Notes under the pieces: generated by a model
What the model was told of the DNA's origin: nothing
What the model saw: the letters and a program-made list of their open reading frames with translations, nothing else
Database searches by the model: none
Translations under genes and position numbers: made by a program
Part shown: positions 15,207-61,299 of the stretch, piece after piece
Layout: the number at the start of each line of letters is the position of its first letter
Position numbering within the stretch: position 1 is the stretch's first letter
NCBI GenBank assembly: GCA_025059805.1
Contig: JANXDG010000068.1
Span: 39,838 to 103,837, forward strand
DNA length: 64,000 nucleotides
Direction of reading: 5' to 3'
Source: Endomicrobiia bacterium
GTDB taxonomy: Bacteria > Elusimicrobiota > Endomicrobiia > DTEH01

Positions 15207-16265
15207 ATGAATAAAAAATATAAGGTGACATTGATACCTGGTGATGGGACAGGTCCTGAACTGGTAAATATAGTAAAACATGTATTAGAATATACAGGAA
15301 TAGAAATAGAGTGGGAAGAAGTAGAAGCTGGCGAATCTGCATTGGAAAAATATGGTGATGTGTTACCACAAAATGTACTGGATTCTATAAGAAAAAATAA
15401 AGTTGCTTTGAAAGGTCCAATAACAACACCTGTTGGTACGGGATTTAGATCTGTAAATGTAGCTTTGAGACAAGAATTAAATCTTTATGCTTGTGTACGT
15501 CCATGTAAAATTTATCCCGGAGTGAAAACGAGATATGAAAATGTGGACCTTGTTGTGATAAGAGAAAATACTGAAGATCTTTACGCAGGTGTTGAATTTA
15601 AACCTTTTAGTGAAGAAGCAAAATATATCATACAGAAAAGTAACGGCAAAATTTTTGAAGACGCAGCTATATCGATAAAACCTATTTCCACAACAGCAAC
15701 TCGTCGTATTGCTGAATTTGCATTTAATTACGCAATAAAAAAAGGTAGAAAGAAGGTTACAGCTGTTACAAAAGCTAATATAATGAAGTATACGGACGGA
15801 TTATTTTTTGAAGTTTGCCGAGATGTAGCAAAAAATTTTCCTCAGATAGAATATGAGGAAAAACTTGTAGATAACATGTGTATGCAACTTGTTCAAAAAC
15901 CAGAACTTTATGATGTACTTTTATTACCTAATCTATATGGTGATATAATATCTGATTTATGTGCAGGTTTAGTGGGTGGGTTAGGTGTAGCACCTGGTGC
16001 AAACTATGGTGACGGTTGTGTGTTGTTTGAGGCGGTACATGGTTCAGCACCTAAGTATAAAGGGCTTAACAAAGTAAATCCCACAGCATTGTTGCTTTCA
16101 GCAACTATGATGCTTGAATATTTAGGAGAAACTGAAAAAGCTATAAAACTTGAGAGAGCAATTGCTGAGGTTATAAGAGAAGGAAAAGTTGTTACATATG
16201 ACCTTGGTGGTAATGCGAAAAATTATGAAATGGCAGAAGAAATAATTAAGAAATTGACCAAATGA
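15207..16265 (+). CDS. NAD-dependent isocitrate dehydrogenase-like (isocitrate/isopropylmalate dehydrogenase family)
   Basis: [50 protein letters not shown]. Confidence 0.8.
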
Positions 16266-20177: not shown

Positions 20178-20546
20178 ATGTTAGTAGAGAGAAGGAGAGA
20201 AAAAAGAATAGAAGTATTTCTTCAAGGTAACTTAAAAATAGAAGGTTTTGAAGAACATCTACCTGTTTGGGTTAAAAATATCTCTTCGTATGGTATGAAA
20301 TTAGCATTTTATAGAATATTTTACTGTAGTAACTGTTCAAAATTAGATGACTTATTATACTTTAGATGTTCAGAAAGTGAAAATTGTAAACTATACAATT
20401 TAGAAAACATCGTTAAGTTTTTATCCAAAGGTGAAATAAAAATAAGCACTAAAAATGAGAATGTAAATAAATCATATCAACTTAAGTGGTTTAAAATCTT
20501 TCCTGAACTTAGCGCTATAGAATTCGGTGTAGAATTTTTAAATTAG
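20178..20546 (+). CDS. PilZ-domain protein (putative c-di-GMP receptor) inserted between fabH and fabD
   Basis: The RRxxxR motif (RRREKR, aa 5-10) and the (D/N)xSxxG motif (NISSYG, aa 33-38) sit 23 residues apart. Very strong SD TAAGGAGGG. A Cys-rich C-terminal half follows. Confidence 0.6.
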   Translation: MLVERRREKRIEVFLQGNLKIEGFEEHLPVWVKNISSYGMKLAFYRIFYCSNCSKLDDLLYFRCSESENCKLYNLENIVKFLSKGEIKISTKNENVNKSYQLKWFKIFPELSAIEFGVEFLN

Positions 20547-27265: not shown

Positions 27266-28108
27266 ATGATAGAAATACCAAATTTTGTCCAAGAAATTAT
27301 AAACTCTACAGAAACTCTCTCAGAGAAAAAGCTTCGTTCTTTACTTAAACTATATCGCAAAAAACGAGATGGCAAAATTAAAGAACAGATCATAAATGCA
27401 TACTTATGGCTTGTGGTAAAAATCGCAAAAAAGTTTTATAAAAAATATGTAGATACAAATTTAGAGTTTCAGGATTTTATAGAAGAAGGAATCATTGGTT
27501 TATTAAAAGCAATTAATAGGTATAAACCCAGAGGTGGCTCGTTATTTCGACTTTATGCTGAATACTGGATTAAACAATCTTTGCAGCTATATCTTAAAGA
27601 AAAACCTTTTACCATAGCTCAACTTCCGAGATCAAAACTTATGGATATAAAAAAATGGTATGAAGTATGGAACAAAATTTTACAGCGTACCGGTAAAATT
27701 CCATCATTAAAAGCTATGGCGAAAGAACTAAAAATGTCGTATCATAAAGTTCGTGAGTTATATCATCAGTTATGTATGTTGGAAACAACTGAGTCACTTA
27801 CAACACCTGTAGGTGAGGATGCTACCATTGAGGATTTTATTGAAGATAAATCTGCATCGCCAGAGGAAGTGTTATCTTCCGTTTCTATGAAGGAAGCTTT
27901 GGAAGATACACTTGGTAAGATTTTAACAAGGAAAGAAATAGTTGTTATCAAACACAGATATAAACAGTACAGTAAAAATAAAACAGATGGTAAAATGTCT
28001 TATAGAAAAATAGCAAGGATTTTGCATGTTTCTCCAGAATATGTAAGAAAGATTGAACAACGTGCATTACAAAAATTGGCACTTTATGTTAAAGATAAAC
28101 TTGTATAG
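27266..28108 (+). CDS. Sigma-70 family RNA polymerase sigma factor (short, 280 aa; regions 1.2-4, RpoD-like alternative sigma)
   Basis: Region 2: INAYLWLVVKIAKKFYKK...FQDFIEEGIIGLLKAINRYKP...LYAEYWIKQSL. Region 4 HTH: MSYRKIARILHVSPEYVRKIEQRALQKL. Confidence 0.75.
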   Translation: MIEIPNFVQEIINSTETLSEKKLRSLLKLYRKKRDGKIKEQIINAYLWLVVKIAKKFYKKYVDTNLEFQDFIEEGIIGLLKAINRYKPRGGSLFRLYAEYWIKQSLQLYLKEKPFTIAQLPRSKLMDIKKWYEVWNKILQRTGKIPSLKAMAKELKMSYHKVRELYHQLCMLETTESLTTPVGEDATIEDFIEDKSASPEEVLSSVSMKEALEDTLGKILTRKEIVVIKHRYKQYSKNKTDGKMSYRKIARILHVSPEYVRKIEQRALQKLALYVKDKLV

Positions 28109-29704: not shown

Positions 29705-31030
29705 ATGAAAAAAATTACCGTTACAACTTTTTTTATTTTTATATCTTTTTGCCAGATAACCTATTCAATAACCAAAATGTTTTTGGATACAAATTATAAG
29801 ATGTCTTATATTGAATATGAAAATCTTGATTTTAATATTTCAACTTCAACTGATAATTTTAACAAAGTTTATTCTGTATTAACTGTAAGTCTAAAAACCT
29901 TTATTGACAATACTCAGTTTGAGATTGAAATGAATAGTTTAGGTGAAGCAGGTACGGAAAATTATCAAAATACTATCTCAACTACATATTCCTGGCAGGT
30001 GTACCGTCCATATCCAAATATTCAGTTTCAACCGTGGTTGTCACAATTCTATTTTAAATATAAATATGACTTTGTAGAAACATTTAAAATACCATATTTG
30101 AAATTGAATGTAGATGGAATACATACATATTTTGTCGCAGGAAGACAAAGGAAAGAATTTGTAGAAGGTTTAGTTGTAGGCGATAATAAAATAGGTTATG
30201 ATGGTCTTTCGTTTGGTTTAAGTTTTGGTAGATTTTTTTACATAGATGGGTTATTATCAAAATTAGTTTCAAAACAAGGATTTGTTGATAACAGATATTT
30301 TGACCTTTATTGTTTTTTGATAGGTAGTAAATTTTATGATGAATATAATTTTGGAATAAATACTGTAATAGAAAATGATAAAATGCTTCAAAGCGAAAAA
30401 ATTTTTTATGAGTTTTTTATTAAGCGTGCAACAGAAAAATATATGTATATATTGGAATACATTATGCAGCGTGGTAGCAAACAAAACAAAGATTATTCAG
30501 GTAGTTTATGGTATTTTAGAGGTGCAATTCAAGGCGAAAGTAGAAATTTTGGTAAATCTATGGCAGGTTTGGTATGGTTATTATCTTCGGGAGGTTCTGA
30601 ACATGGAAGATTCAATCCAACATGTACTAGAAGTTATGAATATATGGAACCATATGGGTATGGCGAATTTACACGAGCTAATGCTCGGGACATATTTTTT
30701 AATCTACCAGATGGTTATTCTGGAGTGTTCATATTAGGGCTTGATTTTAGCGTTAACCCGCTGTCAAAATTATATACTGGATTTGAATATTATTTATATT
30801 CTTCACCTGAAGCACCAGATGACAAACCTGACGCTTCTGCAACAGAAAGGACACTTGGTGCTAAAAAAGCTATAGGTCTTGAGTACGGAATTAGTGGGAG
30901 ATATGAAATATCAAAGGATGTTAGTGTAAATTTTTCCTATTCGATTTTTGACCCAACTGCTAATGCTTATCCTAAAAAACAACATGATATCGCAACAAAA
31001 TTTGTTTTGTCGTTAGTGAGTAAATTTTAA
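29705..31030 (+). CDS. Putative outer-membrane beta-barrel protein (hypothetical)
   Basis: Signal peptide MKKITVTTFFIFISFCQITYS. Aromatic-rich alternating pattern throughout, and a C-terminal ...LSLVSKF with a terminal Phe. Confidence 0.45.
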   Translation: MKKITVTTFFIFISFCQITYSITKMFLDTNYKMSYIEYENLDFNISTSTDNFNKVYSVLTVSLKTFIDNTQFEIEMNSLGEAGTENYQNTISTTYSWQVYRPYPNIQFQPWLSQFYFKYKYDFVETFKIPYLKLNVDGIHTYFVAGRQRKEFVEGLVVGDNKIGYDGLSFGLSFGRFFYIDGLLSKLVSKQGFVDNRYFDLYCFLIGSKFYDEYNFGINTVIENDKMLQSEKIFYEFFIKRATEKYMYILEYIMQRGSKQNKDYSGSLWYFRGAIQGESRNFGKSMAGLVWLLSSGGSEHGRFNPTCTRSYEYMEPYGYGEFTRANARDIFFNLPDGYSGVFILGLDFSVNPLSKLYTGFEYYLYSSPEAPDDKPDASATERTLGAKKAIGLEYGISGRYEISKDVSVNFSYSIFDPTANAYPKKQHDIATKFVLSLVSKF

Positions 31031-41963: not shown

Positions 41964-42014
41964 ATTTACTAATCGTTGAAAATTTATTGTTAAATTTTGT
42001 ATAAATTTAAGAAT

Positions 42015-43349
42015 ATGCAGAAAAAAATTCTATCCTTTATCATTTCTTGTATTTTTTTAATAGGTATACAATTTATTTATACTGTTACTGTTACCGAAGA
42101 AAAAATTACTTTGGAACGTTCTATTCGTGAACGTGTTGAAGAATTAGTTGAAAAGATTATAGGAAGTAAAAACTTTGTTGTACTTGTTACGGTTGAGATA
42201 AAAACTCCTGAACAAACACCAAGTGGTAATACCGATGTAAGTAGACCTGTTTACCCAGGTATGTATCTGCGTGAAGAAGAATATTTACCTGGCGTTACTT
42301 ATTCATACCTTCCAGTAACAAATCCAGCAACAAATCTGCCAATGCAAGTAGCAATAGATAAAATTATTATTAACATAGCTATGGATAGTGAAGTACCAGA
42401 TGAGTTAATAAACAGAGTTAAAACAGAATTGCCAATATTGTTAGGTCTTAACCTTATGCGAGGAGATTCCGTCAATATTAATAAAATTAAATTTCAAACT
42501 ATACCAACCTGGAGAGTAATATTGGAACAAATGTTACCACATCTTTATATACCATTATTGATTATAATTGTTGCTTTATTTCTCTTTGGACCTGTAACAC
42601 ATTTTTTCAAGACAGTAGTTCAATCTGTACAATTGAGGATTGATGCGGATGCAAGATTACGTAGTACTGAAAAGACAGTAGTAACTAGCCAAGGACAGAC
42701 CGGATTACTACCTGGTACTGAATTTACATTGCCGGAACCTTCGCCTGTTGCTGCATTGGGTATGCCAGGTTCAGCCGAACTTAAGAAAGAAGAAAAAATC
42801 TTACGTAAGCATTTCAGTTTTATCAACAAAGATAATTTGAAAAGTTTATGGTATCTAATTAAAGACGAAGAACCGTCAGTAATAGCTCTTATAATGAGTT
42901 ATCTTCCACCAGACCTTGTAGCCGAACTAATGACAATGTTGGATATGAAAACTCAAGCAAAGGTTGCTTTAGAACTTGTTTCCATGAAAATGCCCGAACC
43001 AGAAAAAGTTCAGGAAATTGAAAATTATATAAAATCAAGGATTGACTATTGTATTGGTGGTGAAGATTACTTTTTATCACTTCTTGACCGTGCAGATAAG
43101 GAGGTGCAAGAAGATATCTTACATATGTTATCATTACAAAATCCTGCACTGGCAGATAAGATACGAGGAAAAATATTTTTATTTGAAGATATTTTATTTC
43201 TTGATAAAACGACATTACAAAAAATTATTCGCGAGGCACAACGGCGTGGTGTCTCTTTAGCTTTAGCTCTAAAAGGTGCCTCTGATGAGATAAAGAATAA
43301 AATTATGGATTGTCTGACAGAAGGTGGTCGTGCAATGTTGGCAGAATAA
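42015..43349 (+). CDS. Membrane protein fusing a FliF/YscJ-type ring-building periplasmic domain to FliG middle and C domains. The FliG C-domain is cut short by an in-frame TAA at 43347.
   Basis: TM1 ILSFIISCIFLIGIQFIY. Periplasmic LERSIRERVEELVEKIIGSKNFVVLVTVEIK and ELPILLGLNLMRGDSVNINKIKF resemble FliF ring-building motifs. TM2 LYIPLLIIIVALFLFGPV. Cytoplasmic VIALIMSYLPPDLVAELMTMLD is FliG-middle-like. KIFLFEDILFLDKTTLQKIIREAQRRGVSLALALKGASDEIKNKI is FliG-C-like. The tracked ORF starts at TTG 41997. Confidence 0.7.
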   Translation: MQKKILSFIISCIFLIGIQFIYTVTVTEEKITLERSIRERVEELVEKIIGSKNFVVLVTVEIKTPEQTPSGNTDVSRPVYPGMYLREEEYLPGVTYSYLPVTNPATNLPMQVAIDKIIINIAMDSEVPDELINRVKTELPILLGLNLMRGDSVNINKIKFQTIPTWRVILEQMLPHLYIPLLIIIVALFLFGPVTHFFKTVVQSVQLRIDADARLRSTEKTVVTSQGQTGLLPGTEFTLPEPSPVAALGMPGSAELKKEEKILRKHFSFINKDNLKSLWYLIKDEEPSVIALIMSYLPPDLVAELMTMLDMKTQAKVALELVSMKMPEPEKVQEIENYIKSRIDYCIGGEDYFLSLLDRADKEVQEDILHMLSLQNPALADKIRGKIFLFEDILFLDKTTLQKIIREAQRRGVSLALALKGASDEIKNKIMDCLTEGGRAMLAE

Positions 43350-43535
43350 ATAGATTTACTTGGAGATGTCGGAGAGAAAGCTATTAGGGAAGAACAAAAG
43401 AAGATAGTTGCTGTTGTGCGTAATTTAGTTAACGCAGGTGAAATTAGTATAGACAAAACAAAATTTATAAAAGAACAAATTGAAAAACAAAAGAGTGTTA
43501 CAATAGAACCTGAAGTTGTGGAAGAAAAAAGGTAG
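43350..43535 (+). pseudogene. In-frame continuation of the FliG-like C-domain after the TAA at 43347-43349 (IDLLGDVGEKAIREEQKKIVAVVRNLVNAGEISI...)
   Basis: Same frame as the upstream ORF. Aligns with the FliG C-terminal helices (...EAMGPVRLKDVEEAQQKIINIVRRLAEAGEIVI). No ATG or SD of its own. The next stop is TAG 43533-43535. Confidence 0.55.
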
Positions 43536-43567
43536 TGTTTCTTAGTAAAGGAGGGATTTGAACCGTT

Positions 43568-44335
43568 ATGGATCTAATGACGGTGGTTGGTTTACTTTTA
43601 GGTATTGGTGCTGTATATTATACGTTGCAAGCTGGTGGTTTGTTGAATATGATATATAACTTCCCTTCATTAGTTCTTGTACTAGGTGGAACAATAGCTT
43701 CTACCTTTTTAACCTATCCATACAGAATATTAAAACGCGTCCCTGCGGCAATGATGTTAGCATTATTCCCACAAAAAAGATGGACAGCTGAAAAGTATAT
43801 AAATTTGTTAGTTGACTTAGCTGAGAAAGCAAAACGTAACGGTCTCGACGCTTTGCAGGAAGAATTGCCAAAAATAAAAGATCACTTTTTAGTCGACGGA
43901 TTACAAATGGTGCTAGACGGATTAAATCCAGAAATTGTAAGAGAAAATTTGATTAAAGAAATTACTTTTATAAGACGACGACATCAGCAGGTACATGCTG
44001 TCTTTCGCAGTATGGGTGCTTATGCACCAGTGTTTGGTCTTCTTGGTACGCTAATAGGAGTCGTAGGTGTCTTAAAAAATTTGACAAATCCAGAAGCGAT
44101 AGGCTCGTCAATGGCAGTTGCCGTCATTACAACTTTTTATGGTATTTTTGGTACGAACTTTGTCTTTCTGCCAATTGCAAATAAACTCGCAGCATATACT
44201 GAAGAAGAATTATTACTTAAAGAAGTATCAATTGAAGGTATATTAGCAATACAAGCCGGAGAGATACCTTCTGTAGTAAGTAGAAGGTTGCAAGCGTTTT
44301 TAGCTCATAAAATGAGACAACGTAAAACAAAATAA
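43568..44335 (+). CDS. motA: MotA/PomA-family stator proton-channel protein
   Basis: 4-TM topology with conserved ...AYAPVFGLLGTLIGVVGVL and AVAVITTFYGIFGTNFVFLPIANKL. SD AAGGAGGG. Confidence 0.8.
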   Translation: MDLMTVVGLLLGIGAVYYTLQAGGLLNMIYNFPSLVLVLGGTIASTFLTYPYRILKRVPAAMMLALFPQKRWTAEKYINLLVDLAEKAKRNGLDALQEELPKIKDHFLVDGLQMVLDGLNPEIVRENLIKEITFIRRRHQQVHAVFRSMGAYAPVFGLLGTLIGVVGVLKNLTNPEAIGSSMAVAVITTFYGIFGTNFVFLPIANKLAAYTEEELLLKEVSIEGILAIQAGEIPSVVSRRLQAFLAHKMRQRKTK

Positions 44336-44353
44336 TCTTTTTAATATATCGCT

Positions 44354-45031
44354 ATGAGTTTGGAAGAAAAAGAAGATCAAGATATTGAAGAAGAAGCAGA
44401 AGAAAAAGTAGAAGTTACAGAAAGCGAAGAGATTAAACAAGGATTAAATATTTGGAGAACGGTATATTCCGATATGTCTACCAATCTTACATTATTTTTC
44501 CTAATTCTTTTTGCATTTACTAGATTAAGTGCTTCAAAAAGAGAAGAACTTTTACAAGCATTGTCTCGGCTGGGTCAGAAAGTAGAAGTTGCACAGGAAG
44601 AAATTGTAAAACAAGAAACTGATGAATTAACACGAAAACTTGAAAAAGTTGCTACTGTGGAGATTAAAGAAGAGGAGATTGTAATTAATCTCCCGTCACC
44701 AGTATTGTTTGATTTAGGCAAGGCGGAACTTAAAGAGCAAGCCAAAAATATTCTAAGTGAAATTGCGAGTAGTTTAAGGTCAATATCAGGTGACGTTGTA
44801 ATTGAAGGACATACTGACAATTTGCCTATATTTGGAGGCAAGTACAGATCTAACTGGGAACTTTCGGCAGCACGTGCATTTTCTGTGAGAGATTATCTTA
44901 TTAAAGAAGGTATTTCTGAAAAAAGAATTTCGTGTGTAGGGTATGGCGAATATAAACCTGTAGCAGCAAATGATACCGAGGAGAACCGTGCAAAAAATCG
45001 TAGGATTGAGATAAAAGTGGTGAGGAAATGA
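44354..45031 (+). CDS. motB: MotB-like stator subunit 1 (single TM + OmpA-like peptidoglycan-binding domain)
   Basis: WRTVYSDMSTNLTLFFLILFAF resembles the MotB [20 protein letters not shown] segment. C-terminal VVIEGHTDNLPI...NWELSAARAFSVRDYL...NRRIEIKV is an OmpA/MotB domain. Confidence 0.8.
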   Translation: MSLEEKEDQDIEEEAEEKVEVTESEEIKQGLNIWRTVYSDMSTNLTLFFLILFAFTRLSASKREELLQALSRLGQKVEVAQEEIVKQETDELTRKLEKVATVEIKEEEIVINLPSPVLFDLGKAELKEQAKNILSEIASSLRSISGDVVIEGHTDNLPIFGGKYRSNWELSAARAFSVRDYLIKEGISEKRISCVGYGEYKPVAANDTEENRAKNRRIEIKVVRK

Positions 45032-45035
45032 ATCA

Positions 45036-45746
45036 ATGGTAAATAAGAAAAAAATTTCTACAGCCGAACAAGATAGTTATCAAATTGATACAGAAAGTTG
45101 GGTTACTCCATATGGTAACTTAATGACTTTTCTTATGATACTTTTCTTTTTGTTATATGCATATACTTTCTTTCTTAATGATATTGATTATGAACGATTG
45201 ATGAATAGAGTTCAAGCACAACTTGCTTCTCTTGATCTAAAATCGAGTATGGAACTAAAAAAAAGAGAAAAAGAAACCGAATTTGCAAGAAAGCTTAGTG
45301 AATATGTGAAAACAAAAGGGCTTTCTGGAGCAGCTGAAATCAATATCTCAGCTCAGAAAATAAGGATTATGTTTACTGAACGCGCCGTGTTGTTTGCTTC
45401 AGGTAGTGCAGAACTTGATAGTAATGCAATTAATGTCCTAAATGATTTAGCAGATTTAATTAAAATATTACCTGAGACTAACCGTATCATTATTGAAGGT
45501 CACACAGATAATGTACCTATAAGGACTAAAGAATTTGCTAATAATATGGAGCTTTCAATTGCAAGAGCAATTTCAGTATTAAATTATTTTACGAAAAAAA
45601 AGAACTTACCTCCTGAGAGGTTTGCAATTGCTGGTTATGGTGAATTTCGTCCTGTGGACATGTCTACGGATATTACTAAGGCTAATGATACTGAAGAAAA
45701 ACGTGCAAGAAATAGACGTATAGAAATTATAATTTCGCGTACTTAG
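45036..45746 (+). CDS. MotB-like stator subunit 2 (paralog)
   Basis: WVTPYGNLMTFLMILFFLLYAY TM/plug segment. IIIEGHTDNVPI...NMELSIARAISVLNYF...NRRIEIII OmpA/MotB domain. SD GAGGAA. Confidence 0.8.
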   Translation: MVNKKKISTAEQDSYQIDTESWVTPYGNLMTFLMILFFLLYAYTFFLNDIDYERLMNRVQAQLASLDLKSSMELKKREKETEFARKLSEYVKTKGLSGAAEINISAQKIRIMFTERAVLFASGSAELDSNAINVLNDLADLIKILPETNRIIIEGHTDNVPIRTKEFANNMELSIARAISVLNYFTKKKNLPPERFAIAGYGEFRPVDMSTDITKANDTEEKRARNRRIEIIISRT

Positions 45747-45775
45747 TTTTATATCACTCCCCGGAATAACAGTCA

Positions 45776-47227
45776 ATGACGATCAGAAATAAACTTGCAT
45801 CATTATTCTTTGTTTTGCTAGGATTGATTTTTATATTAGTAATTTGTCTGATCACTACTTTATATCTGCAACGTCAATATTTCCTGTATTATGTTGACAT
45901 ACAAAAGAGCCTTACTTTACTTGAAAGCATTATCCAAAATGTTAGTTTTCAGAGATTATATTTTGATTATTACATCTTATTTAATGATGAAAAAGATAAA
46001 GAAAACTTTACAGCCATAAGCGATAGAATCAAAAACCTGTATGATGAGTATAAGAAAAGCAATGAAGGGAAAAATTTATTTCTAAAATATCAAGCTATGA
46101 CTGAAGTTGCTAATAGAGTTTTTGATGAATCTAAGCGAGAGAGAAAGGTTAGTATTGCAATGACAGAATTTTTGCCAAAATACGAAATTGTACTTACAGA
46201 GTTAGAAAATCAACGACAAAAACATAATGAAGAAAAGATGAAATTAGAACGAACTGTTACCTTACTGACGATAGTAAGTTGGGTGATTTCAATAGCAGTT
46301 ATTTTGGTTGCATGTTTTATAATTGTTACTTTTGGAGTACGAATTTATCGTTCCTTAACAAGATCCCTGAGAGTAATTATAGATTTTGCGCATACGTTAT
46401 CTCGTGGTGAATACAGAAATATCTTTTACTCTACAGATGATGAATTTGCTGAAGTAATATCTGTGTTTAATTATATGGTTCAAAATTTAAAAACTTTGCA
46501 AGCACAAATCATACAAATGGATAGATTATCAAACATTGGTCAACTTGCAGGCGGTATCGCTCATGAACTTAACAATCCACTTGTAGGAGTATTAGGTCAG
46601 GCACAGATTTTACTTGAAAAATTGCCTGCGGATTCGCCATTGCGTGAACATGTAGAAAAAATTGAGAGAGCAGCACGAAGATGTAAAGAAAATGTAAGTA
46701 AACTGTTACAGTTTTCACGACAGAAAGAGTACGAATATACAGAAGTGGACATGAATGAGCTTATAAAGAACGTATTGTTTATAGCTGACAGCGAGTTGAA
46801 GGCGCATGATATACAAGTGATAACGATGTTTTCTAACGATCTTCCAATGCTAAGTTTATCGATTCCACATATGCAACAAGCATTATTAAACATTGTTAAT
46901 AATGCTATCCAAGCAATGAGTGAGAACACCAACAAAAGAATTTTATATATAAAAACATATACGGTAACATCTGAGGAAAACAATAAATTGTCTAAATATA
47001 TAGCGGTAGAATTTCAGGATACCGGTTGTGGAATTGAAAAACAGAATCTTACTTCAGTGTTTGAACCGTTCTTTACGACTAAGGACAGAAACAAATTTGC
47101 TGGGATGGGATTAGCTATCACAAAGGATATTATATTACATCACAAGGGTAAGATTAGTGTTTTCTCTGAAGGTATAAATAAAGGAGCGAAATTTGCAATA
47201 TATCTACCTTGTCATGAAGATAAATAA
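45776..47227 (+). CDS. Sensor histidine kinase (2 TM, HAMP, HisKA, HATPase_c); no cognate response regulator adjacent
   Basis: IAHELNNPLVGVLGQAQ (H-box), N-box NNAIQAM, G-boxes DTGCGI and GMGLAITKDII. Confidence 0.85.
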   Translation: MTIRNKLASLFFVLLGLIFILVICLITTLYLQRQYFLYYVDIQKSLTLLESIIQNVSFQRLYFDYYILFNDEKDKENFTAISDRIKNLYDEYKKSNEGKNLFLKYQAMTEVANRVFDESKRERKVSIAMTEFLPKYEIVLTELENQRQKHNEEKMKLERTVTLLTIVSWVISIAVILVACFIIVTFGVRIYRSLTRSLRVIIDFAHTLSRGEYRNIFYSTDDEFAEVISVFNYMVQNLKTLQAQIIQMDRLSNIGQLAGGIAHELNNPLVGVLGQAQILLEKLPADSPLREHVEKIERAARRCKENVSKLLQFSRQKEYEYTEVDMNELIKNVLFIADSELKAHDIQVITMFSNDLPMLSLSIPHMQQALLNIVNNAIQAMSENTNKRILYIKTYTVTSEENNKLSKYIAVEFQDTGCGIEKQNLTSVFEPFFTTKDRNKFAGMGLAITKDIILHHKGKISVFSEGINKGAKFAIYLPCHEDK

Positions 47228-56086: not shown

Positions 56087-57016
56087 ATGAGAAAGATAAA
56101 AATAGCAGTATTGTATGGTGGATTTTCATCAGAACGGAATATCAGTCTTAAGACAGGACGTGCTGTATTTGAAAATCTTAAAAAATGGAAAGATTTTGAT
56201 GTAAAACTTGTTGACCTTAAAAAAGAATATTGTTTGGAACAAGTTTTGTCACTAAAAAAACAAAGAATAGACCTTGTGTTCATAGCATTACACGGAAAAT
56301 TTGGTGAAGATGGTAAATTACAAACTCTACTTGATACTTTAGGTATTAAATACACAGGTGCTGATTCTACATCATCAATGATTGCAATGAATAAACACCT
56401 AACTAAAATACTTCTTAAGGGAAATGGAATACCCACTCCTGAGTGGGAGAATATAAATTCAATTGAGGAGATTGAACATATTAAATTAAAACCTCCTATA
56501 GTTGTCAAACCTTCAGATGAAGGTTCAACTATAGGTGTATCTGTTGTCAGAAATAAAAATGAATTAGCATTCGCTGTGAGAAAAGCTTTGAGATATAGTA
56601 CCACAGTGATTATTGAAAAATTTATCAATGGAAAAGAAATTACAGTACCAATACTTGATAGTGAAATACTTCCAATGATTGAGATAGTCCCAAGGCTTAG
56701 TGAGTATTATGATTTCAAATCTAAATATAGTAAAGGTGGATCTCAACATATCATCCCACCACAAGTTGATAGAAAGATGATAAGCAAAATAGCTGACATC
56801 GCGAGAAAAGCAGCTAGAGTCATAGGTTGTGAAATACTTTGCAGAATTGATTTAATTCTTGATAAAGATAGAAATACACCTTATGTCTTAGAGGTAAATA
56901 CTATACCTGGAATGACACCTACTTCTCTTTTACCAGAAGCGGCAAGTTATTGCGGAATTACTTTTCCAGAATTGGTTAGAAAAATTGTTTTTTCCTCATT
57001 GAAAAAGTATGAGTAA
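56087..57016 (+). CDS. ddl: D-alanine--D-alanine ligase
   Basis: KIAVLYGGFSSERNISL, ALHGKFGEDG, LEVNTIPGMT. Confidence 0.9.
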   Translation: MRKIKIAVLYGGFSSERNISLKTGRAVFENLKKWKDFDVKLVDLKKEYCLEQVLSLKKQRIDLVFIALHGKFGEDGKLQTLLDTLGIKYTGADSTSSMIAMNKHLTKILLKGNGIPTPEWENINSIEEIEHIKLKPPIVVKPSDEGSTIGVSVVRNKNELAFAVRKALRYSTTVIIEKFINGKEITVPILDSEILPMIEIVPRLSEYYDFKSKYSKGGSQHIIPPQVDRKMISKIADIARKAARVIGCEILCRIDLILDKDRNTPYVLEVNTIPGMTPTSLLPEAASYCGITFPELVRKIVFSSLKKYE

Positions 57017-57779
57017 ATATCGTAGTTATAAAATATCGTTGAGAAGAAAAAAAAGTAGTAAAGTTTTAAGAATTGGAAGAATTATTGTTCTCCTAGCAGT
57101 AATAGTTTTAGCTGGCAAATATTTTAAATTAGTAACGATGAAAATTAAAGATATCTTTTCTATTAAAGAGGTTATCATATTAAAAAATAATACGACAGTT
57201 CCAGATGATGTATTACTGAATAATTTTTCTACACCAATGACGGTTTTAACTTATACTAAAACATTGAGTAATATTAAAAAAATATATCCCGAGATAAAAC
57301 AGCTTAAAGTCTTAGGTATACCTTTTCAAAAGCTAAAGTTAGAAGTTATATCTGAAATTCCAATATATTACACTAAGGTAAAAGAACAAACAAAATTTTT
57401 CTCAAAAACCATAGGATGGTACAGTGTGTACGATGTAAGTCTTGTTTCACTTAAAAATTTGATCGAGTTAGAAAATAGAATAGAGGACAAAAATATTTTA
57501 TTCTTAACAGATAAAATAGTTAGAAAAATTTGTTGTAGTAAATTAAAGGGTGAAATTATTAAAATAATTGTTGGGGAAAATGGTGAGTGGAACTTGATTA
57601 TAAGAAAAGAAGATGGACAGTCACAATTGTTAGTAGATGAGAATATAATAGATATTGATGAAGAAGATCTTCATTTTATCATTTCGCATATGAACAGGTT
57701 TGCTGGTAAAATCTATGCAAGGTTAATTACCGAAGGTAGAATATATGTTGAAGAAAACGAACAAAAGTTGTATAATTAA
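57009..57779 (+). CDS. ftsQ: Cell division protein FtsQ/DivIB-like
   Basis: Basic N-terminus plus one TM (IIVLLAVIVLAG), then a POTRA-like region. Sits between ddl and ftsA. Confidence 0.6.
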   Translation: MSKYRSYKISLRRKKSSKVLRIGRIIVLLAVIVLAGKYFKLVTMKIKDIFSIKEVIILKNNTTVPDDVLLNNFSTPMTVLTYTKTLSNIKKIYPEIKQLKVLGIPFQKLKLEVISEIPIYYTKVKEQTKFFSKTIGWYSVYDVSLVSLKNLIELENRIEDKNILFLTDKIVRKICCSKLKGEIIKIIVGENGEWNLIIRKEDGQSQLLVDENIIDIDEEDLHFIISHMNRFAGKIYARLITEGRIYVEENEQKLYN

Positions 57780-59098: not shown

Positions 59099-60187
59099 AT
59101 GTCTACAGAAGTATTGACAAAAAAGTACCCAATAAGAATAAAAATAATAGGTGTAGGTGGAGCAGGAGGTAATGCTGTTAATAGGATGGTTTCTACAGAA
59201 CTTATTGAAACCTCCGAAGTAGAGATTATAAGTATAAATACTGATTTACAAGCACTTAGAAATTCTAAGGCTCCAATAGTTATCCAAATAGGTCCTAAAA
59301 CAACAAAAGGACAGGGTTCCGGTGGAAATCCTGCTGTTGGTAAACAAGCAGCAGAGGAGTCAATAGAAACCATTCGTGATCTTATCACAAACACTGATAT
59401 GTTATTTTTGACCTGTGGGATGGGAAAAGGTACTGGTACAGGTGCAACTCCTGTAGTAGCAAGACTTGCAAGAGAGATGGATATACTAACAGTTGCTGTT
59501 GTAACAAAACCGTTTAAGTTTGAAGGACCAAAGATAATGGAAAATGCAGAAAATGGTATCTCTGAACTAAAGAAATATGTTGATGCGTTTTTAGTGATAC
59601 CCAATGATAAATTTATCGAACTATATCCAAACCTAAGTTTTACAGATGTGTTATATCGTCTCGCAGATGATGTATTGTTTAAAGCAGTTTTTAGCATGTT
59701 AAACGTAATAAGACGTCCAGGATTTGTAAATGTAGATTTTGCTGATGCGAGGAATGTTTTAAAAGGTGCTGGAGAGATAATTATGTCTTACGGTGTAGAA
59801 AAATCCGAAACTGAAGGAGCGTTAAAAAAAGCAATTAAAAGTGCAATTAATAACCCTTTCCTAAATGTAAACATTCGTGGTGCAAAGAAGTTTTTGGTAA
59901 ACTTTTCAGGGAAAAATATCTTATCAGCTGACGTATCAGCTGCTGGTGAATACTTACGACAATTTTTAGACAATAAAGATGCGTTGTTATTTCTGGGATA
60001 TGTTACTTCTGAAGAATTTGAAGATAAAGTTGAAGTAACTATTATTGCTAGCGGATTTCAAATTGTTTCAGATAAGGGTAAAACACGAAAGTATATAAAG
60101 CCTACCAGTGATATTGAAAGTTCTACCATAACAACTGAAATTGAACCAAAATTTTATAGAACAGGAAGATTACGTGTCTTAAAATGA
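59099..60187 (+). CDS. ftsZ: Cell division GTPase FtsZ
   Basis: IIGVGGAGGNAVNRM, GGGTGTGATPVVA (tubulin signature). Confidence 0.95.
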   Translation: MSTEVLTKKYPIRIKIIGVGGAGGNAVNRMVSTELIETSEVEIISINTDLQALRNSKAPIVIQIGPKTTKGQGSGGNPAVGKQAAEESIETIRDLITNTDMLFLTCGMGKGTGTGATPVVARLAREMDILTVAVVTKPFKFEGPKIMENAENGISELKKYVDAFLVIPNDKFIELYPNLSFTDVLYRLADDVLFKAVFSMLNVIRRPGFVNVDFADARNVLKGAGEIIMSYGVEKSETEGALKKAIKSAINNPFLNVNIRGAKKFLVNFSGKNILSADVSAAGEYLRQFLDNKDALLFLGYVTSEEFEDKVEVTIIASGFQIVSDKGKTRKYIKPTSDIESSTITTEIEPKFYRTGRLRVLK

Positions 60188-61299
60188 CGCAATCAACGGA
60201 TAAAATTACAACAATAATTAAAAAATTTTTACAAGCCAAGGCAAGCGATCTCCATATAAGGACTGGCTGTAAACCTTATATTCGTATTTGTGGTAAGTTA
60301 GACGTAATGGGAGAAGAATCAGAATTAAATGAAACAGAAGTTCAAAATTTTGTTTATAGTCTTTTAACACCACAACAGCGAGAAAAATTTGAAAAAGACA
60401 AGGAATGTGATATAGGATACAATTTTCAGAATTTGGCAAGATTAAGGATGAATATTTTCTATCAACGTGGTGTAATAAACATAGCAATAAGGAATATACC
60501 ATTAGAAGTTCCGTCAAAGGAAGAATTGGCATTACCTGAAGTTATATATCGCTTAGCAGAAAATGTAAGAGGTTTAGTTTTGGTGACAGGTCCAGCTGGT
60601 TCTGGTAAATCTACGACTTTGGCAAGTATGATTGATTATATAAATTCCACAAGAGCAGCACATATTGTTACAATAGAGGATCCTATTGAATTTATACATA
60701 AGGATAAAAAATCAATAATATCACAAAGGGAAGTTCCTTATGATACAGCATCTTTTATTTCAGCACTGAGGCATGTTGTGAGGCAAAATCCGGATGTCAT
60801 ACTTATAGGTGAAATGCGTGATTTAGAAACTATGCAGGCAGCACTTACTGCTGCACAACTTGGACATTTTGTACTTTCAACAGTTCATACTGTGGATACC
60901 GTACAAACGATTTCAAGGATTATAGATATGTTTCCTATGCATCAACAAAATCAAGTTAGACTACAGTTAGCAGATACTTTAAGAGGAATAATTGCGCAAA
61001 GGTTGCTGCCTAGGAAAGATGGCGGGGGATTAATACCAGCACTTGAGATTTTAGTTGTCACACCCGCTGTAAGAAAATGTATAGAAGAAAAAAATTTAGG
61101 TGACATTACGAATTTGATTAAACAGGGTAAACACTATGGTATGCAGACTTTTAATCAGTCATTATTAGATTTGTATAAAAGTGGGAAAATAAAACTGGAA
61201 GATGCACTTTATGCCGCAACAAGTCCTGAGGATTTGATGCTTGCGATTAAAGGCATACAGACATCTAGCGAGCCTTCACAGATTTTCGAAAGGTTTTAA
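60184..61299 (+). CDS. pilT: Type IV pilus retraction ATPase PilT
   Basis: Walker A LVTGPAGSGKST, TIEDPIEF, the His box, and PilT-specific AIRNIP. ATGA overlap with ftsZ. Confidence 0.85.
   Translation: MTQSTDKITTIIKKFLQAKASDLHIRTGCKPYIRICGKLDVMGEESELNETEVQNFVYSLLTPQQREKFEKDKECDIGYNFQNLARLRMNIFYQRGVINIAIRNIPLEVPSKEELALPEVIYRLAENVRGLVLVTGPAGSGKSTTLASMIDYINSTRAAHIVTIEDPIEFIHKDKKSIISQREVPYDTASFISALRHVVRQNPDVILIGEMRDLETMQAALTAAQLGHFVLSTVHTVDTVQTISRIIDMFPMHQQNQVRLQLADTLRGIIAQRLLPRKDGGGLIPALEILVVTPAVRKCIEEKNLGDITNLIKQGKHYGMQTFNQSLLDLYKSGKIKLEDALYAATSPEDLMLAIKGIQTSSEPSQIFERF

Follow-up and report, generated by a model that had tools for sequence, protein, structure and literature searches.

The Agl-Glt gliding machinery of Myxococcus spans the envelope and brings together a surface adhesin, barrels of the outer membrane and TPR proteins, PorLM and GldLM energise type IX secretion (T9SS), and spirochetes, Pseudomonas and Shewanella carry multiple FliG or stator sets. 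Natural and engineered fusions of the flagellar ring protein FliF to the rotor protein FliG have also been described. The non-flagellated Chlamydiaceae encode a natural single chain of ~330 aa in which a shortened FliF, with two hydrophobic segments and a reduced periplasmic region (RBM2 and a second RBM-like region, lacking the SpoIIIAG-like RBM3), is joined to a FliG-like cytoplasmic domain comprising FliG_M only; it lacks a MotAB partner and has been considered in the context of the injectisome (Bergeron 2016, PMC4768692). In Salmonella and Vibrio, engineered FliF-FliG fusions, which are laboratory versions of the full-length proteins inside a complete flagellum, form rings as a 1:1 chain and support rotation (PDB 8z4d/8z4g; Francis 1992, Thomas 2001, cited in PMC4768692), so the covalent architecture is mechanically viable.

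We analysed a 64-kb stretch of DNA (the window) from an Endomicrobia (Elusimicrobiota) MAG, which carries a five-gene locus at 42015-47227 on the + strand. Five tightly packed ORFs in the same direction (41997/42015-47227) encode, in order, a FliF-FliG fusion protein, MotA, two MotB paralogs and a HAMP histidine kinase. The fusion product (P0001) corresponds to the NCBI MAG protein NZ928_06825 from Endomicrobia bacterium. Upstream of the ATG, the frame of its gene also contains a TTG (41997). Our analysis partly confirmed the locus as first described. In agreement with the original prediction, a scan that covered practically every ORF from 120 aa upwards found no further flagellar gene in the 64-kb window, and none appeared in the annotated or compared parts of related loci, each of ~20 kb. 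Elsewhere the window contains the predicted dcw genes (murC/murB/ddl/ftsA/ftsZ) and the gene of a PilT-like ATPase, whereas the PilZ domain was not found among the scanned ORFs. Published surveys find flagellar gene sets to be rare or absent in Elusimicrobiota: two report no flagellar machinery in Endomicrobia/Elusimicrobia genomes (PMC11257099, PMC7031533), and a third, a preprint, gives complete sets for a few Elusimicrobiota genomes and mentions orphan fliG/motAB (bioRxiv 10.1101/2022.07.08.499144).

That one gene naturally joins a FliF ring-building domain to the M and C domains of FliG was borne out. ORF 1 exceeds the Pfam cut-offs for FliG_M (E 1.7e-15) and FliG_C (E 1.1e-15), and its periplasmic part is an RBM3-like domain with the topology helix-strand-insertion-strand-helix-strand, the conserved insertion being ~49 aa long (YPG..EEEYLPGxTYSYxP). 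Pfam YscJ_FliF (RBM1/2) has no match in the fusion, whose ring-building part consists of RBM3 and the collar-like insertion only. An AF2 model of the monomeric periplasmic domain was of moderate confidence (pLDDT 68.8), with the insertion below 55. FliG_N is likewise absent from the protein, and the EHPQR FliM-binding motif is lost, with R160 replaced by E/Q/N/S/T. The fusion is without these three interfaces (RBM1/2, FliG_N, EHPQR) that tie FliF and FliG to the rest of the flagellum. In FliG_C, the Gly-Gly hinge and the FxFE(D) motif are kept, as are K264 and, at D288, a Glu that does not vary. The torque-helix charges follow the canonical pattern only in part: R281 has its counterpart two residues away, Gln stands at D289, and R297 has no equivalent. 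The FliG C domain is recognisable as claimed, but ORF 1 ends within the MotA-contacting helix. Two TM helices had been placed around the periplasmic domain; judged by eye, the N-terminal one resembles, in several homologs, a signal peptide that can be cleaved (..VFA/A.., ..SYS/L.., the slash marking the apparent cleavage site) more than a second TM. The single chain, the shortened FliF and the FliG-like cytoplasmic domain recall the Chlamydiaceae fusion; unlike it, the protein here has only RBM3 and collar, both FliG_M and FliG_C, and an operon shared with stators.

Table 1. Positions of the features of the rotor-stator locus, in window coordinates.
Feature	Position	Strand	Remarks
FliF(RBM3)-FliG(M,C) fusion gene, portion ahead of premature stop	42015..43346	+	444 codons from ATG 42015
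N-terminal hydrophobic segment of fusion: signal peptide or TM1	42027..42077	+	sequence and homolog alignment
Periplasmic FliF-RBM3-like ring-building domain	42078..42530	+	
TM helix of fusion, invariant FLFGP motif	42540..42608	+	homolog alignment; hydrophobic stretch HLYIPLLIIIVALFLFGPVTHFF read from sequence
FliG middle domain	42843..43043	+	EHPQ degenerate (E-x-P-x), R160 equivalent lost
FliG C-terminal domain, first part	43128..43346	+	profile positions 3-73 of 108
In-frame TAA replacing homologs' CAA (Gln)	43347..43349	+	E. coli FliG D289 position, torque helix
Rest of FliG_C and C-terminal tail (61 codons + stop), untranslated unless read through	43350..43535	+	
MotA, flagellar-type (PomA/MotP-like) stator A subunit	43568..44335	+	MotA_ExbB E 5e-25
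MotB1: TM with conserved Asp (YSDM; Asp32), plug, OmpA-like peptidoglycan anchor	44354..45031	+	
MotB2: Asn at ion-binding position (PYGNLMT), plug, OmpA-like anchor	45036..45746	+	
Membrane sensor histidine kinase: 2 TM, weak HAMP, HisKA, HATPase_c	45776..47227	+	

The gene next to the fusion gene indeed encodes MotA, which, beyond its family match, aligns over its full length with solved flagellar MotA/PomA structures (E 1e-47 to 1e-42). It retains E150, P173, T209 and P222, shows a K-R pair in the place of R90, and has Gln as the E98 equivalent with an acidic residue nearby. In relatives MotA is 88-95% identical, against 63-71% for the fusion protein and 49-58% for neighbouring housekeeping genes, and its identity across the clade exceeds that of every neighbouring gene; because of this gap, strong purifying selection is indicated. 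Each MotB has the predicted TM/plug segment and OmpA-like anchor, with MotB_plug and OmpA above cut-off in both. A conserved TM aspartate in both paralogs had been left as a question: MotB1 keeps it everywhere, whereas the window's MotB2 has Asn, and both paralogs keep Asp in L014, L018 and L027. In E. coli, the MotB substitution D32N reportedly abolishes function.

The locus therefore shares with the flagellar motor core (FliF MS-ring, FliG, MotA5MotB2/PomAB) an RBM3-type domain, FliG M and C with Gly-Gly hinge and FxFE, a PomA/MotP-like MotA with P173, P222, T209 and a charged cytoplasmic loop, and MotB with Asp, plug and OmpA-like anchor. Unlike that core, it has FliF and FliG in one polypeptide lacking RBM1/RBM2, FliG_N and the EHPQR FliM site, no genes for export apparatus, rod, hook, filament or FliM/N near the locus, one MotA with two MotB paralogs of which one has Asn for Asp, and a host phylum reported as non-flagellated. 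A single MotA-like subunit with two MotB/TolR-like paralogs is also the arrangement of AglRQS in Agl-Glt, which differs in being of the TolQR/ExbBD type, without plug, OmpA domain, large torque interface or a FliG or FliF partner. AglRS is classed with non-flagellar transporters (PMC12505986).

The fusion architecture is widespread in Elusimicrobiota, with 384 clusters at 50% identity, and the named family members belong to this phylum with one exception; among 92 sampled members, FliG_C occurs in 85 and RBM1/2 (PF01514) in only 2. The gene order, whose conservation in relatives was in question, recurs as fusion-motA-motB(-motB) in 8/12 independent loci, and the claimed direct pairing of rotor and flagellar-type stator is kept down to ~40% identity and beyond. 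In L002/L015, L003, L005 and L028, motAB lies apart from the fusion gene. Most loci with the conserved order have a barrel-TPR gene directly upstream of the fusion gene (the family is present in 10/12), preceded by the gene of a giant protein in 8/12. The window clade has this giant and barrel-TPR pair ~370 kb away on the same 1.1-Mb contig, unlinked from the motor locus. Judged from this synteny, the conserved cluster extends beyond the window locus, which is one half of it; the locus is compact in having five co-directional packed ORFs, but not a self-contained minimal unit.

The barrel-TPR partner is a PorV-like outer-membrane barrel of 14 strands joined to a TPR domain in the periplasm; its model (pLDDT 83.5) shows the 14 strands followed by TPR helices. 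Its best fold matches are T9SS PorV chains (E 2e-10, 3e-9), then FadL, and a PDB profile search (PorV, E 3e-6) and NCBIfam PorV_fam (E 4e-12) agree. The giant partners, of 2,300-16,900 aa (one of 16,931 aa), carry a T9SS-type C-terminal domain (CTD).

Because motor genes in relatives adjoin genes for a giant surface protein and an outer-membrane anchor, the locus suggests an undescribed rotary machine made of flagellar-type parts. Our preferred reading, to which we give an even chance, is a rotor-stator motor that does without a flagellum and is coupled to a module of outer membrane and giant protein; the locus would represent its inner-membrane half. The periplasmic RBM3/collar-like domain would oligomerise the fusion into a ring, like FliF in the S-ring, and the FliG_M-FliG_C domains, being part of the same chain, would form a ring on the cytoplasmic side. 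The MotA5MotB2 units, fixed to peptidoglycan by the OmpA-like anchors of both MotBs, would be powered by ions passing the aspartate of MotB1, and their push on the torque helix of FliG_C would make the ring rotate. Export gate, rod, hook and switch complex would give way to the PorV-like barrel-TPR protein, whose TPR domain may contact the ring, and to the giant CTD protein. The motor would most likely move or tension this outer-membrane/adhesin module, in gliding-like motility or adhesin handling, under control of the histidine kinase, joined in other lineages by a CheY-like regulator. The original suggestion of a minimal, possibly flagellum-independent, rotary or force-transducing machine agrees with the missing flagellum-specific interfaces and the conserved stator, but not with the barrel-TPR and giant partners or the truncated rotor of this copy. 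We count against the preferred reading the only partly canonical torque helix, the Gln at E98 of MotA, the Asn of MotB2, the stop codon in the window and the unlinked modules in some lineages. The moderate AF2 confidence of the periplasmic domain (pLDDT 68.8) is counted likewise.

The same module might instead energise T9SS-like secretion or attachment of CTD-bearing proteins rather than move an adhesin, which we consider unlikely. As in Bacteroidetes gliding and type IX secretion (GldLM/PorLM, PorV, SprB-type giants), a PorV-like barrel, a T9SS-CTD giant and an ion-driven inner-membrane motor are encoded together; the giant scores 26.0 bits with the T9SS type A sorting-domain model TIGR04183, above its cut-off of 23, and L028 has several pairs of CTD cargo and PorV-like barrel genes near the fusion gene. 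The motor here, however, is MotAB with a FliF-FliG ring, not GldL5M2, and the barrel, unlike Bacteroidetes PorV, carries a C-terminal TPR domain. No homologs of SprA/Sov, PorK/N or PorL/M occur within ~20 kb of the loci examined, and the cluster is bound to one specific, collinearly conserved giant (32-44% identity across ~2,000 aa), not to many cargoes. To our knowledge, T9SS occurs only in the Fibrobacteres-Chlorobi-Bacteroidetes group, outside which Elusimicrobiota fall.

A non-rotating assembly, in which a static ring scaffold is combined with MotAB as peptidoglycan-anchored PMF-sensing clamps or regulators (of envelope integrity, division or type IV pili), appears improbable. The Asn at the MotB2 ion-binding site in the window clade, the incomplete set of torque-helix charges and the setting of the window-clade locus among cell-wall genes (amidase_3, murI, then dcw genes), near the PilT-like ATPase, would fit it. 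This neighbourhood is, however, peculiar to the clade of the window and missing at distant loci, the MotB1 Asp is universal, with L014, L018 and L027 retaining it in both paralogs, and the extremely conserved MotA keeps all ion-conduction and rotation residues.

An independent Logan assembly shares the premature stop in the rotor gene. This stop costs FliG_C its last helix as well as half of the torque helix, so the motor in this strain is probably disabled unless the stop is read through. The stop and the reported lack of flagella in the phylum could point to a decaying, functionless remnant of an ancestral flagellum, which we regard as very improbable: the site is a sense codon (Gln; Glu in one) in 23/23 aligned homologs, all intact, and the 61 conserved codons behind the stop (43350-43532) show no extra divergence, identity to P0002 being 80% in the tail and 79% in the head. 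Hundreds of 50%-identity clusters moreover retain the architecture, which has gained new conserved partners, and MotA is more conserved than any neighbouring gene. That the locus supplies an accessory FliG/FliF paralog and extra stators to a canonical flagellum encoded elsewhere is extremely improbable, since the flagellar (PomA/MotP-like) stator type and the complete sets of the one preprint stand against the lack of flagellar genes in the window and compared loci (~20 kb each), the three missing flagellar interfaces, the surveys of Endomicrobia/Elusimicrobia (PMC11257099, PMC7031533) and conserved neighbours that encode an outer-membrane barrel and a giant protein.

The kinase had been described as an orphan HAMP histidine kinase. 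HisKA and HATPase_c exceed their cut-offs and HAMP stays below (21.7 vs 25 bits); no receiver domain occurs anywhere in the 64-kb window, which fits an orphan, but distant loci do have a CheY-like partner. Kinase homologs adjoin the cluster in L001, L007, L008, L011 and L012, and in L013, L015 and L018 they lie at its opposite end, together with a CheY-like single-domain regulator.

The locus brings together, in five consecutive genes, a fusion of a FliF ring-building domain to FliG, a MotA, two MotB paralogs (MotB1 and MotB2) and a membrane histidine kinase (see the table), after which the next gene encodes an amidase_3 cell-wall hydrolase. The fusion protein is identical to an annotated NCBI protein from an 'Endomicrobia bacterium' MAG. 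Rotor and stator are made of flagellar-motor parts. The original prediction had made both halves of the fusion depend on HMM support: Pfam gave it for FliG_M and FliG_C and detected neither YscJ_FliF nor YscJ_FliF_C on the window protein, so that assigning the periplasmic domain to RBM3, one of the ring-building domains of FliF, needed a family profile, a structure model and an exhaustive search.

Coordinates of the five-gene cluster, related loci and other features of the window
Feature	Location	Strand	Remarks
Five ORFs, one direction	41997-47227	+	Spacing 4-30 nt except one 219-nt gap
ORF 1, fusion gene before the stop	ATG 42015 to 43346	+	Pfam FliG_M E 1.7e-15, FliG_C E 1.1e-15
ORF 2, MotA	43568-44335	+	Full-length model and PDB matches
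ORF 3, MotB1	44354-45031	+	MotB_plug and OmpA above cut-off
ORF 4, MotB2	45036-45746	+	MotB_plug and OmpA above cut-off
ORF 5, membrane histidine kinase	45776-47227	+	
Single-domain CheY-like response regulator in related loci	L013:615-992, L015:1178-1555, L018:987-1352		After the kinase at the cluster start
Upstream gene of L026 (contig_13895 of ERZ25039471)	L026:1-8090		16,931 aa
Pairs of CTD-bearing cargo and PorV-like barrel, and Roadblock/LC7 gene	L028:1-5327 and 15798-16145		Near the fusion gene
ORF without Pfam or NCBIfam match	20178-20546		122 aa
Sigma-70-family factor	27266-28108		280 aa
ORF without Pfam or NCBIfam match	29705-31030		441 aa
ORF without Pfam or NCBIfam match	57003-57779		258 aa
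PilT-like T2SSE ATPase gene	60160-61299		Immediately downstream of ftsA-ftsZ

The periplasmic region of the fusion protein is only ~150 aa long. Against the PDB, a profile of the domain built from 15 family members matched FliF chains only, with a best E of 0.007 and nearly the whole domain covered. The AF2 model (pLDDT 68.8) runs helix, strand, 49-aa insertion, strand, helix, strand, the collar-like insertion being modeled at low confidence, and a Foldseek search with this model returned FliF RBM3/S-ring structures as its best 17 matches, followed by PrgK. PF08345 was found in 71 of 92 more distant family members, and together with the PDB profile and Foldseek results it bears out the predicted FliF-type domain, namely the RBM3 with beta-collar insertion (S-ring) of canonical FliF. 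The fliF equivalog TIGR00206 stays below its cut-off on the window protein (E 0.014, 14.3 bits, cut-off 129.75). RBM1 and RBM2 (Pfam YscJ_FliF, PF01514), the part of FliF in which the export gate sits, have no match on the window protein and appear in just two of the 92 sampled family members, among which FliG_C is present in 85 and FliG_M in 82. When the periplasmic domain served as query for an exhaustive HMM search, 384 clusters at 50% identity were recovered, 53 of them at E <= 1e-10; nearly all matches place the domain at residues ~25-190 of proteins of 450-700 aa, and a few have the position and size of canonical FliF, at residues ~240-420 of 530-560-aa proteins with E ~1e-9.

As predicted, the FliG middle and C domains are recognizable: both Pfam domains score above cut-off, and the M/IFxFE motif and the Gly-Gly hinge are present, GG and FxF(E/Q)D varying little or not at all across the family. 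The fliG equivalog TIGR00207 aligns to residues 270-441 at 95.1 bits, far below its cut-off of 226.7. When the family was aligned with E. coli and Thermotoga FliG, it began just ahead of FliG_M, at about residue 100 of E. coli FliG, and therefore has no FliG_N, the domain that binds the FliF C-terminus; the sole FliG_N match (E 0.0012) lies below cut-off and overlaps FliG_M. The FliM-binding EHPQR motif of FliG_M is degenerate, EHPQ reading E-x-P-x and R160 being replaced by E, Q, N, S or T across the family. Of five charged residues conserved in the torque-helix region of canonical FliG (E. coli K264, R281, D288, D289 and R297), the family keeps K264, and an invariant Glu stands at the D288 position. 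The R281 position is Gly with an Arg or Lys two residues later, D289 is Gln, and R297 is Gly, Thr, Ser, Pro or Ala. Every interface to the rest of the flagellum has been lost.

The flagellar-type stator, by comparison of relatives, is intact and strongly constrained: MotA is 88-95% identical among them, against 63-71% for the fusion protein and 49-58% for flanking housekeeping genes. MotA aligns over its full length with the MotP, MotA and PomA models (E 1e-63 to 1e-57, every score below the equivalog cut-off) and with solved flagellar MotA/PomA structures (E 1e-47 to 1e-42). It has the four TM helices, the large cytoplasmic torque interface and P173, P222 and T209, and also keeps E150. Of the charged residues with which E. 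coli MotA faces FliG, R90 corresponds to Lys followed by Arg or Lys, and E98 to Gln, an acidic residue coming one or two places after it. A180 of E. coli MotA is matched by a Thr, and the charge pattern of the cytoplasmic loop, K-R...Q-E-E, is PomA-like. The stator resembles PomA/MotP more closely than E. coli MotA. The ion-binding Asp is conserved among characterized MotB, PomB, ExbD and TolR proteins. Checking both paralogs for this TM residue, as had been suggested, divided them: MotB1 carries the Asp (E. coli D32), the plug and the OmpA-like peptidoglycan-binding domain at every locus, and the window's MotB2 has plug and OmpA domain with Asn in place of Asp (PYGNLMT). This Asn is found in the window clade and in two further loci (L013 and L017); in L014, L018 and L027 MotB2 has Asp, and the distant L026 has a single MotB, with Asp. 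MotB2 may pair with MotB1 as a one-site heterodimer, or make a non-conducting stator.

The gene order has persisted in relatives, as the original prediction had proposed to check: fusion, motA, motB1 and motB2 follow one another in L001, L007-L013, L017, L018 and L027, while L026 has one motB and L014 carries its stator genes on the opposite strand. All-against-all comparison of the loci revealed that in most lineages two more conserved genes immediately precede the fusion gene, first that of a giant protein and then that of a 'TPR' protein of 515-650 aa. The conserved cluster links rotor and stator with a giant CTD-bearing protein and a barrel-TPR protein of the outer membrane. In the window clade these two genes lie away from the locus, with no homolog of either inside the window; the pair is kept ~370 kb off on the same 1.1-Mb contig, and also in another MAG. 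The barrel-TPR model (pLDDT 83.5) comprises a signal peptide, a 14-strand beta-barrel and then the TPR domain, and its best fold matches are T9SS translocon PorV chains (E 2e-10 and 3e-9; TM 0.61 relative to the target), followed by FadL. PorV is likewise the only non-TPR match of its sequence profile in the PDB (E 3e-6). NCBIfam PorV_fam aligns over the full length at E 4e-12 (46.4 bits, cut-off 90), and Pfam PorV reaches 26.9 bits against a cut-off of 27. The C-terminal TPR domain is an addition that T9SS PorV does not have. The giant protein (~2,200-2,400 aa; orthologs collinear at 32-44% identity) combines DUF2341, fn3 and BNR-type propeller repeats with an Ig-like domain at its C-terminus. 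For the window-clade ortholog, from L022, the model of the T9SS type A sorting domain, TIGR04183 Por_Secre_tail, scores this domain at 26.0 bits, above its threshold of 23, at residues 2302-2379 of 2393; other orthologs give weak FlgD_ig/CHU_C matches. The far larger upstream gene product of L026 is homologous to the ~2,300-aa giant proteins in its C-terminal part. Another related locus, L028, has several pairs of CTD-bearing cargo and PorV-like barrel together with a Roadblock/LC7 (MglB-like) gene, and its fusion gene itself has a C-terminal TPR extension.

One reading of these PorV and Por_Secre_tail matches is that the module energizes T9SS-like secretion, which we consider unlikely. In our own reading, offered tentatively, fusion proteins would oligomerize in an S-ring-like manner with the FliG ring attached, MotA5B2 units would rotate this ring, and its periplasmic face would work on the giant protein's barrel by way of the TPR domain. 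A bolder version, somewhat less likely than not, sees here a previously undescribed envelope-spanning rotary machine widespread in the Elusimicrobiota: a T3SS-less FliF(RBM3)-FliG ring, driven by MotAB, with its collar bound to the TPR domain of a PorV-like barrel that holds a giant surface protein of 2,300 to ~17,000 aa. Such a machine would add a third type of motor for gliding or for driving adhesins, made from flagellar parts. It would be either a reduced flagellar motor put to radically new use or a present-day counterpart of a rotor-stator stage before the flagellum. The chance that the system as a whole represents a new kind of machine is in our view substantial. As far as we know, a FliG/FliF rotor is lacking from all of the non-flagellar MotAB relatives (Ton, Tol, Agl, Gld/Por, Zorya).

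Among published systems the FliF-FliG fusion of the Chlamydiaceae comes closest, set apart by its published description: it joins a short RBM2-containing FliF to FliG_M only and has no stator, whereas the present fusion has RBM3 with both FliG_M and FliG_C (PMC4768692). Engineered Salmonella and Vibrio FliF-FliG fusions demonstrate that a single-chain design can rotate (PMC4768692). Beyond these two kinds of fusion, the literature that we found on the system amounts to one brief mention of orphan fliG/motAB genes in Elusimicrobiota; our search returned no account of the fusion architecture, of the Asn MotB paralog or of any connection with a PorV-like barrel and a giant protein. A survey of MotAB evolution, in which flagellar stators fall in one clade ('FIT'), mentions neither Elusimicrobia nor a FliG-paired non-flagellar system (PMC12505986).

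If the rotary-machine reading is true, the torque core of MS-ring element, FliG and MotAB can exist and be selected with no secretion apparatus, rod, hook or filament attached and can serve another output, which bears on the long-standing question in flagellar origins of whether rotor and stator can be separated from the export machinery. For the Elusimicrobiota, which are regarded as non-motile, it would be a candidate system for surface motility or adhesin handling, and it would offer their 'enigmatic' orphan fliG/motAB genes a candidate role (preprint 10.1101/2022.07.08.499144). With one polypeptide, a 1:1 FliF:FliG ratio and no switch complex, it would also be a tractable minimal rotor suited to structural and single-molecule work, and the Asn MotB paralog in a one-MotA/two-MotB arrangement a natural experiment on stator mechanism.

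The kinase adjoins the cluster in the close clade and had been described as lacking a response regulator, which is true of the window, where none was found. It does not extend to three relatives (L013, L015 and L018), in which a 40%-identical kinase and a CheY-like regulator of 121-125 aa stand at the opposite end of the cluster. This regulator is a candidate direct regulator of rotor or stator. That the fusion assembly is itself a static scaffold or regulator seems to us quite improbable.

The 219-nt gap behind ORF 1 is coding frame and not intergenic, interrupted by an in-frame TAA at 43347-43349, behind which 61 codons supply the remainder of FliG_C (IDLLGDVGEKAIREEQKKIVAVVRNLVNAGEISID...). 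The stop aligns with E. coli FliG D289, inside the torque helix. All 23 aligned homologs read through this position, 22 with Gln and one with Glu, and the change is CAA to TAA. An assembly artefact is unlikely, as the independent Logan assembly of run SRR15826899 has the same TAA, with 2 mismatches to the window over 7,335 nt. An alternative genetic code is excluded because TAA is the main ordinary stop of the window (42 TAA, 12 TGA and 9 TAG among long ORFs). Re-initiation is implausible, the first in-frame start-type codon being a GTG 22 codons on that would give a peptide of only 39 aa. Compared with the closest homolog, the codons after the stop have diverged no more than those before it (80% vs 79% identity), so the event is recent. 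In the window strain the torque helix would lose one half and the final helix would be missing, which, with the C-terminal FliG truncations in E. coli reportedly described by Lloyd et al. in 1996, predicts assembly without torque. A decaying relic, very unlikely in our view, would fit the nonsense codon of the window but does not fit the family.

A scan of essentially all ORFs of 120 aa or more across the 64 kb turned up no other flagellar gene, which upholds the claim to this effect, and the annotated or compared parts of related loci hold no genes for export apparatus, rod, hook, filament or FliM/N. Flagellar genes are absent in Elusimicrobia (PMC7031533), an absence in the phylum also noted in PMC11257099, and a full set occurs in only a few Elusimicrobiota genomes, while non-flagellated ones still have motAB and fliG homologs (10.1101/2022.07.08.499144). 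Judged from the window and the related loci, an accessory part of a canonical flagellum is highly improbable, contradicted by the missing interfaces and by this literature. All 12 genome loci found belong to Elusimicrobiota or are short contigs in MAGs under other names, and the named family members are Elusimicrobiota plus one Saganbacteria MAG. Elusimicrobiota-type loci in MAGs of other phyla, namely L010 (Thermodesulfovibrio, a 3.7-kb contig), L017 (Ignavibacteria) and the protein P0230 (Saganbacteria), probably reflect binning error and not horizontal transfer.

Elsewhere in the window, a sigma-70-family factor encoded 14 kb upstream of the locus was considered as a FliA-type factor and rejected, its best models being RpoD/RpoS-like and FliA_WhiG scoring 86 bits against a cut-off of 189.6. 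A promoter and terminator scan of 40.5-49 kb was uninformative, with 29 promoter-like sites against 38.8 expected. A PilZ protein had also been reported for the window and was not recovered among the ORFs scanned. Of the three ORFs without a match, the one of 258 aa lies between ddl and ftsA, where ftsQ is expected. Nearly all genes of the window are on the + strand, GC skew is positive except in two 2-kb bins and cumulative skew climbs to 5.4, which fits a single replichore whose genes strongly favor one strand.
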